Shown here in pieces: positions 63,533 to 64,000 of a stretch of DNA of 64,000 nt. The first letter of the stretch is position 1. Every line of letters starts with the position of its first letter. The notes below the pieces were generated by a model. That model did not search any database, was not told the origin of the DNA, and saw nothing but the letters and a program-made list of their open reading frames with translations. This DNA is from Escherichia coli (GTDB lineage Bacteria; Pseudomonadota; Gammaproteobacteria; Enterobacterales; Enterobacteriaceae). The stretch lies in NCBI RefSeq assembly GCF_003334335.1, contig NZ_QOWQ01000002.1, one strand, 5' to 3'. Both the position numbers and the translations under genes were made by a program.

Positions 63533-64000
63533 CTCAGGAAGGAAAAAGTGGCTTTCGCGCACCTTAGGTCAGACAAGGTGTCCGGGAAAGTCAATGGGAA
63601 GAGAAAAATTTGTTAAAAATAACTGTTCGGCGATTTCTTGAACGGCATAATAGGTTAGATAAATTGATATAGATGGTTTATTAATCTTTTTGCTAATGAT
63701 TGCAAAAATTGATCTAAGCACGAGTCATCACATAATCTGATGTATCAGTTGTGGTCAATATATAAGCGAATGTAAGAGATTGTTGATGGCGAAATGGTTG
63801 TTTTCTATTCGGTTATTGTTAAATGCTAAGCCATTTTGTTAATTTACCTTATATTATAAGAAAATTATTCATGACTTTAATTTAGTTTAAATATAACTGA
63901 TATCCCTGAAGGTTATTAACTTGAATTATGACGCACTGATATTATTCATCAAATAATAACAAAATAGCCATTGCACCGGGTTGAACAATTTACAAAAGAA

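Follow-up and report, generated by a model that had tools for sequence, protein, structure and literature searches.

The 64,000-nt stretch of Escherichia coli DNA analysed here (hereafter the window) ends in 360 bp of strongly AT-rich sequence, positions 63641-64000, in which a single open reading frame of 18 codons had been singled out. What is this DNA for, and does the short ORF encode a protein? An initial annotation, made from the letters alone, had described the region as AT-rich upstream DNA with phased A/T tracts, a pattern typical of curved or H-NS-bound DNA, and had left the expression of the ORF undecided. We consider it highly probable that the tract is the H-NS-silenced 5ˊ regulatory region of the adhesin gene yfaL (also named ehaC), that it arrived together with the insertion of this gene, and that the short ORF is a by-product of its composition.

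The tract lies between ypaB and yfaL, 271 to 630 nt from the nrdA start codon and on the far side of it from the nrdA coding sequence, which occupies the opposite strand. In a 100%-identical RefSeq chromosome and in K-12 MG1655, the gene order is nrdB-nrdA-ypaB-[AT-rich spacer]-yfaL-ubiG-gyrA. The product of yfaL/ehaC is an AIDA-I-type autotransporter adhesin. Its ATG corresponds to position 64066 on the plus strand, 66 nt past the end of the window, and AT-rich DNA runs on up to this codon. The term 'upstream region' is correct insofar as the tract lies upstream of yfaL/ehaC, although the gene that gives the term its meaning had gone unnamed. K-12 coordinates (U00096.3) are obtained by subtracting the window coordinate from 2,408,235, which places the tract at 2,344,594-2,344,235. 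The K-12 copy differs from that in the window at 1 nt in 360 (99.7% identity), and each of the 5426 complete E. coli genomes carries the AT-rich region. The features discussed below are collected in Table 1.

Table 1. Features at the nrdA-yfaL boundary, in window coordinates.
Feature	Position	Strand	Basis or remark
nrdA, class Ia ribonucleotide reductase alpha subunit	61085..63370	-	ATG at 63370
nrdAB promoter and conserved upstream regulatory DNA	63371..63648	-	Near-invariant in E. coli, E. albertii and L041, alignable to other Enterobacterales; literature
NrdR boxes, T-rich block and DnaA boxes TTATCCACA/TTATGCACT (DnaA boxes at 63515-63531)	inside 63371..63648		Within the nrdAB regulatory DNA
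ypaB, 47-aa ORF	63498..63641	+	RefSeq annotation; abuts the AT-rich tract and overlaps the conserved nrdAB regulatory DNA
Predicted intrinsic bend	63621..63780	.	Wedge model; model-dependent
Junction of ancestral nrd upstream DNA and inserted yfaL-linked DNA	63641..63655	.	Alignment
AT-rich DNA: the end of the yfaL/ehaC insertion nearest nrdA, comprising most of the promoter island yfaL/ypaB	63649..64000	.	Escherichia and one other isolate
TAGATAAATT, 9/10 match to the H-NS motif TCGWTWAATT	63656..63665	+	Motif scan
Sigma-70 promoter-like site TTGATC-16-CATAAT	63709..63736	+	Hexamer scan; points toward yfaL, predicted activity
18-codon ORF MAKWLFSIRLLLNAKPFC	63786..63842	+	Judged a chance ORF

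Composition sets the tract apart from the rest of the window. Its GC content is 28.3%, compared with 51.0% for the window as a whole, and no other 360-bp stretch in the 64 kb is lower (only 0.03% of all such stretches are as GC-poor), which confirms the description of the last 360 bp as very AT-rich. The AT-rich DNA begins near 63590 and extends beyond the end of the window. A search of this region for repeats returned only short direct and inverted repeats, at the level expected by chance. Other AT-rich stretches in the window are located at 731-1270, 19271-19960, 22121-22680, 24191-25620 and 42221-42710.

Phasing of the A/T tracts across the region did not hold up. A/T tracts of 4 nt or longer number 16 in 63641-64000 against 18.8 ± 2.4 in dinucleotide-preserving shuffles, the phase coherence of A-tracts for periods of 10.0-11.2 bp is 0.37 (shuffles: 0.33 ± 0.09; P=0.30), and the power of the AA/TT periodogram over the same interval is not above that of shuffles (P=0.62). 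The suggestion of curved DNA may hold in part. A wedge model, run with Bolshoy-Trifonov parameters, gives model-dependent ratios of end-to-end to contour length of 0.79-0.84 for 120-bp windows starting at 63621-63661. The ratio of 0.79 is reached by 0.06% of the windows in the 64 kb and by 1% of shuffles (P=0.01), and a phased-A6 positive control behaved as expected. What the model predicts is thus one local bend at 63621-63780, with the rest of the AT-rich region straight, rather than region-wide phasing. The most curved 120-bp segment of the entire window by this model starts at 42421.

The origin of the tract was examined with at least 80 loci from other species, retrieved with a conserved nrdA peptide as the anchor; nrdA, ubiG and yfaL were then placed in them by tblastn. 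In about 60 of the 80 loci listed, nrdA has ubiG as its immediate upstream neighbour on the same strand, separated from it by a spacer of 360-500 bp. This adjacency is seen in Salmonella, Citrobacter, Enterobacter, Kosakonia, Pantoea, Erwinia and even Aeromonas, and for most of the remaining loci the sequence on the ubiG side is too short to judge. Among the loci listed, which include none under the names E. fergusonii, E. marmotae or E. ruysiae, yfaL occurs only in E. albertii (L016), in L041, which is a divergent Escherichia genome labelled E. coli, and in Enterobacteriaceae bacterium RIT691 (L058).

The position of the boundary can be read from an alignment of the spacers with those of other genera (MAFFT). 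Homology extends from the nrdA ATG to the block CGTT(C/G)AAGAAATC, which ends near 63648. Beyond this shared block, the other genera carry a hairpin-forming inverted repeat, which is probably the ubiG terminator, and then the ubiG stop codon, whereas E. coli carries unrelated AT-rich DNA. The ubiG-nrdA spacers of Salmonella, Citrobacter, Enterobacter and others have no homology to the AT-rich tract. Within Escherichia, positions 63371-63645 show almost no variation between K-12 and E. albertii, and divergence jumps from about 63646 in both E. albertii and L041. Homology to other genera and conservation within Escherichia therefore both end at about 63648-63655, and the left edge of the AT-rich region (63641) lies within about 10 bp of this insertion junction. 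Synteny and junction together place a lineage-specific gene beside the AT-rich DNA.

Sequence divergence among E. coli alleles follows the same boundary. A-type and B2-type alleles are 96.5-100% identical in nrdA, 82% identical in the AT-rich spacer and 66-84% identical in the part of yfaL that encodes the passenger domain, and identity returns to at least 90% in the beta-barrel part of yfaL and in ubiG. Given the junction, the drop in conservation and a divergence shared with the passenger domain, the AT-rich spacer belongs evolutionarily to yfaL and not to nrdA. The gene itself has a GC content of 51% overall and 43-45% in its first 800 nt. Because yfaL is not AT-rich as a whole, the case for its horizontal origin is built on synteny and not on composition.

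The homologue in RIT691 bears on the age of this event. It is 55% identical to yfaL, occupies positions 9500-12364 and lies upstream of nrdA in divergent orientation. The spacer between nrdA and the adhesin gene is 686 bp long with a GC content of 34-35% beside the adhesin gene, and the arrangement is that of Escherichia. This may mean that the insertion predates the genus or that the site has been reused. Since a homologue of this identity is found at the same position, an older insertion followed by later losses could still account for the distribution.

A-type and B2-type alleles also differ at two places closer to the nrd genes. In the 5ˊ untranslated region of nrdA, B2-type alleles have a 13-bp deletion at window positions 63390-63402. 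In the nrdA-nrdB spacer (about 60971-61170), 57% of positions align between the two types, and REP-like repeated translations in the list of ORFs from this spacer suggest an indel of a REP/BIME element.

An alternative assignment would make the stretch mainly a control region of nrdAB, with far-upstream Fis, IciA and AT-rich elements that serve nrd activation and the cell cycle. If the nrdAB transcription start is taken as about 63480, at the distance of 110 nt from the ATG reportedly found by Tuggle and Fuchs in 1986, the tract would span about -160 to -520. An upstream AT-rich cis element as well as Fis and IciA sites are the subject of papers on nrd, a ChIP peak of FNR assigned to nrdAB falls at about 63672, and the predicted bend at 63621-63780 is also located here. 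However, the DNA that is conserved in Escherichia and alignable to other enteric bacteria stops near 63648, and beyond this point the AT-rich tract does not share the conservation of nrdA across Escherichia and related genera. The T-rich block at 63597-63625 lies in the conserved part and is the likelier candidate for the 'AT-rich element'. Moreover, genera that lack the tract regulate nrdAB all the same, and within Escherichia the tract diverges by 15-40%, against an identity of 96.5-100% for nrdA. We therefore regard nrdAB control as an improbable main function and retain the assignment of the tract to yfaL.

For K-12, this DNA has already been described. It falls within promoter island 2342143_534 yfaL(-)/ypaB(-), one of 78 such islands in that genome (Panyukov and Ozoline 2013, PMC3661553). 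Promoter islands are AT-rich, packed with potential transcription starts and bound by RNA polymerase, and produce little full-length RNA (PMC3661553). The yfaL/ypaB island is bound by H-NS in all of the ChIP studies compared (column H = 'A') and is marked as linked to a predicted foreign gene (PMC3661553). After the shift from U00096.2 to U00096.3 (about +1977), the island corresponds to window positions 63581-64114 and contains all of 63641-64000. A simple hexamer scan, in place of the PlatProm program used by the authors of the island catalogue, detected 8 promoter-like sites in 63641-64000 compared with 2.5 ± 1.6 in dinucleotide shuffles. This excess means that the island property is reproduced independently. 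Both in AT content sustained over at least 300 bp and in the density of promoter-like sites, the tract has the features of an H-NS-bound island.

Genomic SELEX for constitutive promoters provides a second line of published evidence. Shimada et al. list, at 50.41 min, the entry 'TTGATC-16-CATAAT ... yfaL < HNS > nrdA' (PMC3946193), whose hexamers and spacing are those of the predicted sigma-70 site in Table 1. The guess that the tract is H-NS-bound DNA is borne out by these K-12 data, which concern the same sequence bar 1 nt (PMC3661553, PMC3946193). For the window itself, H-NS occupancy is expected by transfer from the K-12 ChIP compilations to 99.7%-identical DNA. The H-NS-bound, AT-rich DNA upstream of yfaL is in this sense already known and ordinary.

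The same evidence bears on the idea that the AT-richness has no function and reflects neutral decay of a non-coding spacer. Fast divergence and the lack of a conserved RNA or repeat structure are what such decay would produce, but the promoter-like sites exceed those in composition-matched shuffles, binding of H-NS, sigma-70 holoenzyme and FNR has been published, and the region is kept in 5426 of 5426 genomes. We consider neutral decay very unlikely and continue with the tract as a silenced regulatory region of yfaL.

At the edge of the tract, TAGATAAATT matches 9 of 10 positions of TCGWTWAATT, the motif that Lang et al. reportedly described in 2007 as a high-affinity H-NS site. This match is not above chance, as the whole window contains 17 matches to the motif against 16.5 expected. 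For FNR, a ChIP peak at 2,342,585 has been assigned to direct repression of nrdAB (Myers et al., PMC3688515), and its converted position, about 63672, is just inside the inserted DNA. A scan of the AT-rich region for the FNR consensus with at most 2 mismatches found no site, and the best FNR-like site near 63672, TTGAT-ATAG-ATGGT, has 3 mismatches. H-NS is also cited as a repressor of nrdAB (PMC4009431; PMC12176259), and the phenotypes of yfaL have been studied by inserting a constitutive promoter before the gene (PMC3764049).

The 18-codon ORF is present as first described. It translates to MAKWLFSIRLLLNAKPFC* from 63786-63842, and the sequence AAGAG at 63774-63778 lies 7 nt before its ATG. 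AAGAG was rightly called a weak Shine-Dalgarno sequence, with a predicted pairing energy of -2.9 kcal/mol that 39% of random positions equal or exceed. The peptide is indeed hydrophobic, with a hydrophobic fraction of 0.67 compared with 0.41-0.54 for the six frames of this T/A-rich DNA, and this property is largely a consequence of T/A-rich codons. ORFs of this size are expected in such DNA. The region contains 2 ATG-initiated ORFs of at least 18 codons. Shuffled versions have 2.8 ± 1.4 of them, and at least one is present in 97% of the shuffles.

Conservation of the reading frame across Escherichia had been proposed as a check on the ORF, and the frame is not kept. In an alignment of 14 E. 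coli alleles with those of E. albertii and L041, the ATG, the stop codon and AAGAG are each lost among the sampled alleles. AAGAG occurs only in the allele shared by the window and K-12, of which an exact 76-nt match is found in 1787 of 5426 genomes, and all other sampled alleles have AAGCG. The ATG is kept in most of the non-B2 alleles sampled, is replaced by AGT in B2-type alleles and in L010, and by ATA in L009. B2-type alleles have also lost the stop codon, and all five of their differences inside the ORF are nonsynonymous. The ORF diverges by about 14%, no more and no less than its flanks. In E. albertii and L041 the ATG is missing and in-frame stops occur at codons 10-12. Over the AT-rich region as a whole, 992 genomes have an identity of 80-90%.

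These observations argue against reading the ORF as a real small hydrophobic protein, or as a leader peptide or uORF of yfaL, made from a transcript that starts at the 63709-63736 site. Some elements of such a gene are in place: the frame, its ATG and the AAGAG at a distance of 7 nt, a sigma-70 SELEX site that points the same way from about 50 nt upstream, a hydrophobic product, and an ATG retained in most sampled non-B2 alleles. The number of ORFs is nonetheless at chance, the Shine-Dalgarno sequence is matched by 39% of random sites and is altered to AAGCG outside the window/K-12 allele, and the start codon, the stop codon and the frame are lost in the alleles named above, with no excess of conservation over the flanks. 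Furthermore, the K-12 RefSeq record NC_000913.3 has no feature annotated at the ORF, an Rfam scan of 62900-64000 (E<=1) gave no match and hence no partner sRNA family, and in one strain an IS5-family element interrupts the ORF. Among the entries listed in the available part of the 'Cryptic Bacterial Microproteome' tables, ypaB is included and the 18-codon peptide is not. The ORF has neither a conserved frame, nor a ribosome binding site above background, nor a length beyond chance, which together make a functional product unlikely. We regard the small-protein reading as exceedingly improbable; judged from its sequence, the ORF appears to be a chance frame of T-rich DNA and is unlikely to be a gene.

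The insertion in the ORF is found in strain EC2001 (L014) and is an ISKpn26 element of the IS5 family. It is located at the equivalent of window positions 63826-63830, which is 236 bp upstream of the yfaL ATG, and a CTAA(G) target duplication flanks it. Silent operons are known to be activated by IS5 insertions into their H-NS-bound upstream DNA.

Several known systems resemble the tract to different degrees. The closest is the K-12 promoter island yfaL/ypaB, which is the same locus, with AT-rich DNA, overlapping promoter-like sites, H-NS binding and a neighbouring gene flagged as foreign; a single base in 360 bp is no difference of substance. Cryptic H-NS-silenced adhesins of E. coli, encoded at other autotransporter and fimbrial loci of which several (for example ycgV, yadN, sfmA and elfA) appear in the same island table, likewise have an AT-rich 5ˊ region before a surface adhesin gene, and they share with yfaL silence in the laboratory and the need for an inserted promoter to reveal a phenotype. 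Unlike these adhesins, yfaL has a gene body of average GC content. The curved H-NS nucleation elements of proU and bgl have in common with the tract a local bend, here a predicted one, and a 9/10 motif match, here at the tract edge, but the tract lacks a region-wide array of phased A-tracts and its motif match is not above chance. Finally, the 18-codon ORF is similar in length and hydrophobicity to the small hydrophobic proteins and type I toxins Ibs, Ldr and ShoB (18-35 aa), but it lacks their sRNA partner (as judged with Rfam), tandem copies and conserved frame, and its ribosome binding site is weak.

We propose that yfaL was inserted between ubiG and nrdA and would have brought its AT-rich 5ˊ region along, giving rise to the arrangement now found in Escherichia and in one other Enterobacteriaceae isolate. 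With about 72% A+T, a predicted local bend and overlapping hexamers that resemble -10 and -35 elements, the tract would recruit RNA polymerase unproductively. It would presumably also act as a platform for nucleation and spreading of H-NS, which would keep yfaL silent under laboratory conditions. For the binding of H-NS, sigma-70 and FNR and for the crypticity of yfaL, this model draws on the literature. We infer from these data that H-NS bound at this site is the cause of the silencing, and likewise that it acts on nrdAB. Because the tract borders on the nrdAB promoter region and begins only about 170 bp from the transcription start, the H-NS patch, together with FNR at the tract edge, would probably also damp nrdAB.

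A stronger version of this last step holds that the arrival of yfaL and its AT-rich leader may have placed the essential nrdAB operon under the control of H-NS, and perhaps of FNR, in this lineage specifically. It is suggested by the presence of an H-NS platform and of an FNR peak in DNA that is absent from Salmonella, Citrobacter and others. We consider this rather unlikely. In a weaker variant, the short ORF of A/B1-type strains would serve as a translated uORF in a long yfaL leader after relief of H-NS silencing.

The locus illustrates that H-NS-type DNA can be spotted by a reader given nothing but the sequence, and that the 18-codon ORF attached to it should not be annotated. The junction near 63650 also marks where foreign H-NS-bound DNA was placed some 170 bp before the start of an operon that is essential and regulated with the cell cycle. 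This makes nrdAB a natural case in which to ask whether a neighbouring silenced island changes the regulation of a core gene.

The annotated neighbour of the tract, ypaB, shows a pattern of its own. Its DNA hardly varies, yet the reading frame is not preserved, and all of the substitutions seen are nonsynonymous. In B2-type alleles CTG replaces the ATG, codon W18 is a stop in E. albertii, and EC2001 has an internal stop. Conservation of this sequence looks like that of nrdAB regulatory DNA, with its DnaA boxes and a HusR box (CAGACAAGGTGTCCGG, 63570-63585; PMC12844172), rather than that of a protein. A copy of about 130 bp of 63494-63623, which covers nrdAB promoter DNA, the DnaA boxes and ypaB, is found at about 93-95% identity in P1/P7-type phages and at about 235 places in E. 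coli plasmids. A phage-borne copy of a host DnaA-box/nrd promoter may merit separate study. Most of these copies are unannotated, and examples are located at 91669-91797 of phage P7 (AF503408) and near phd/doc in NZ_CP117715.1, a P1-type phage-plasmid.
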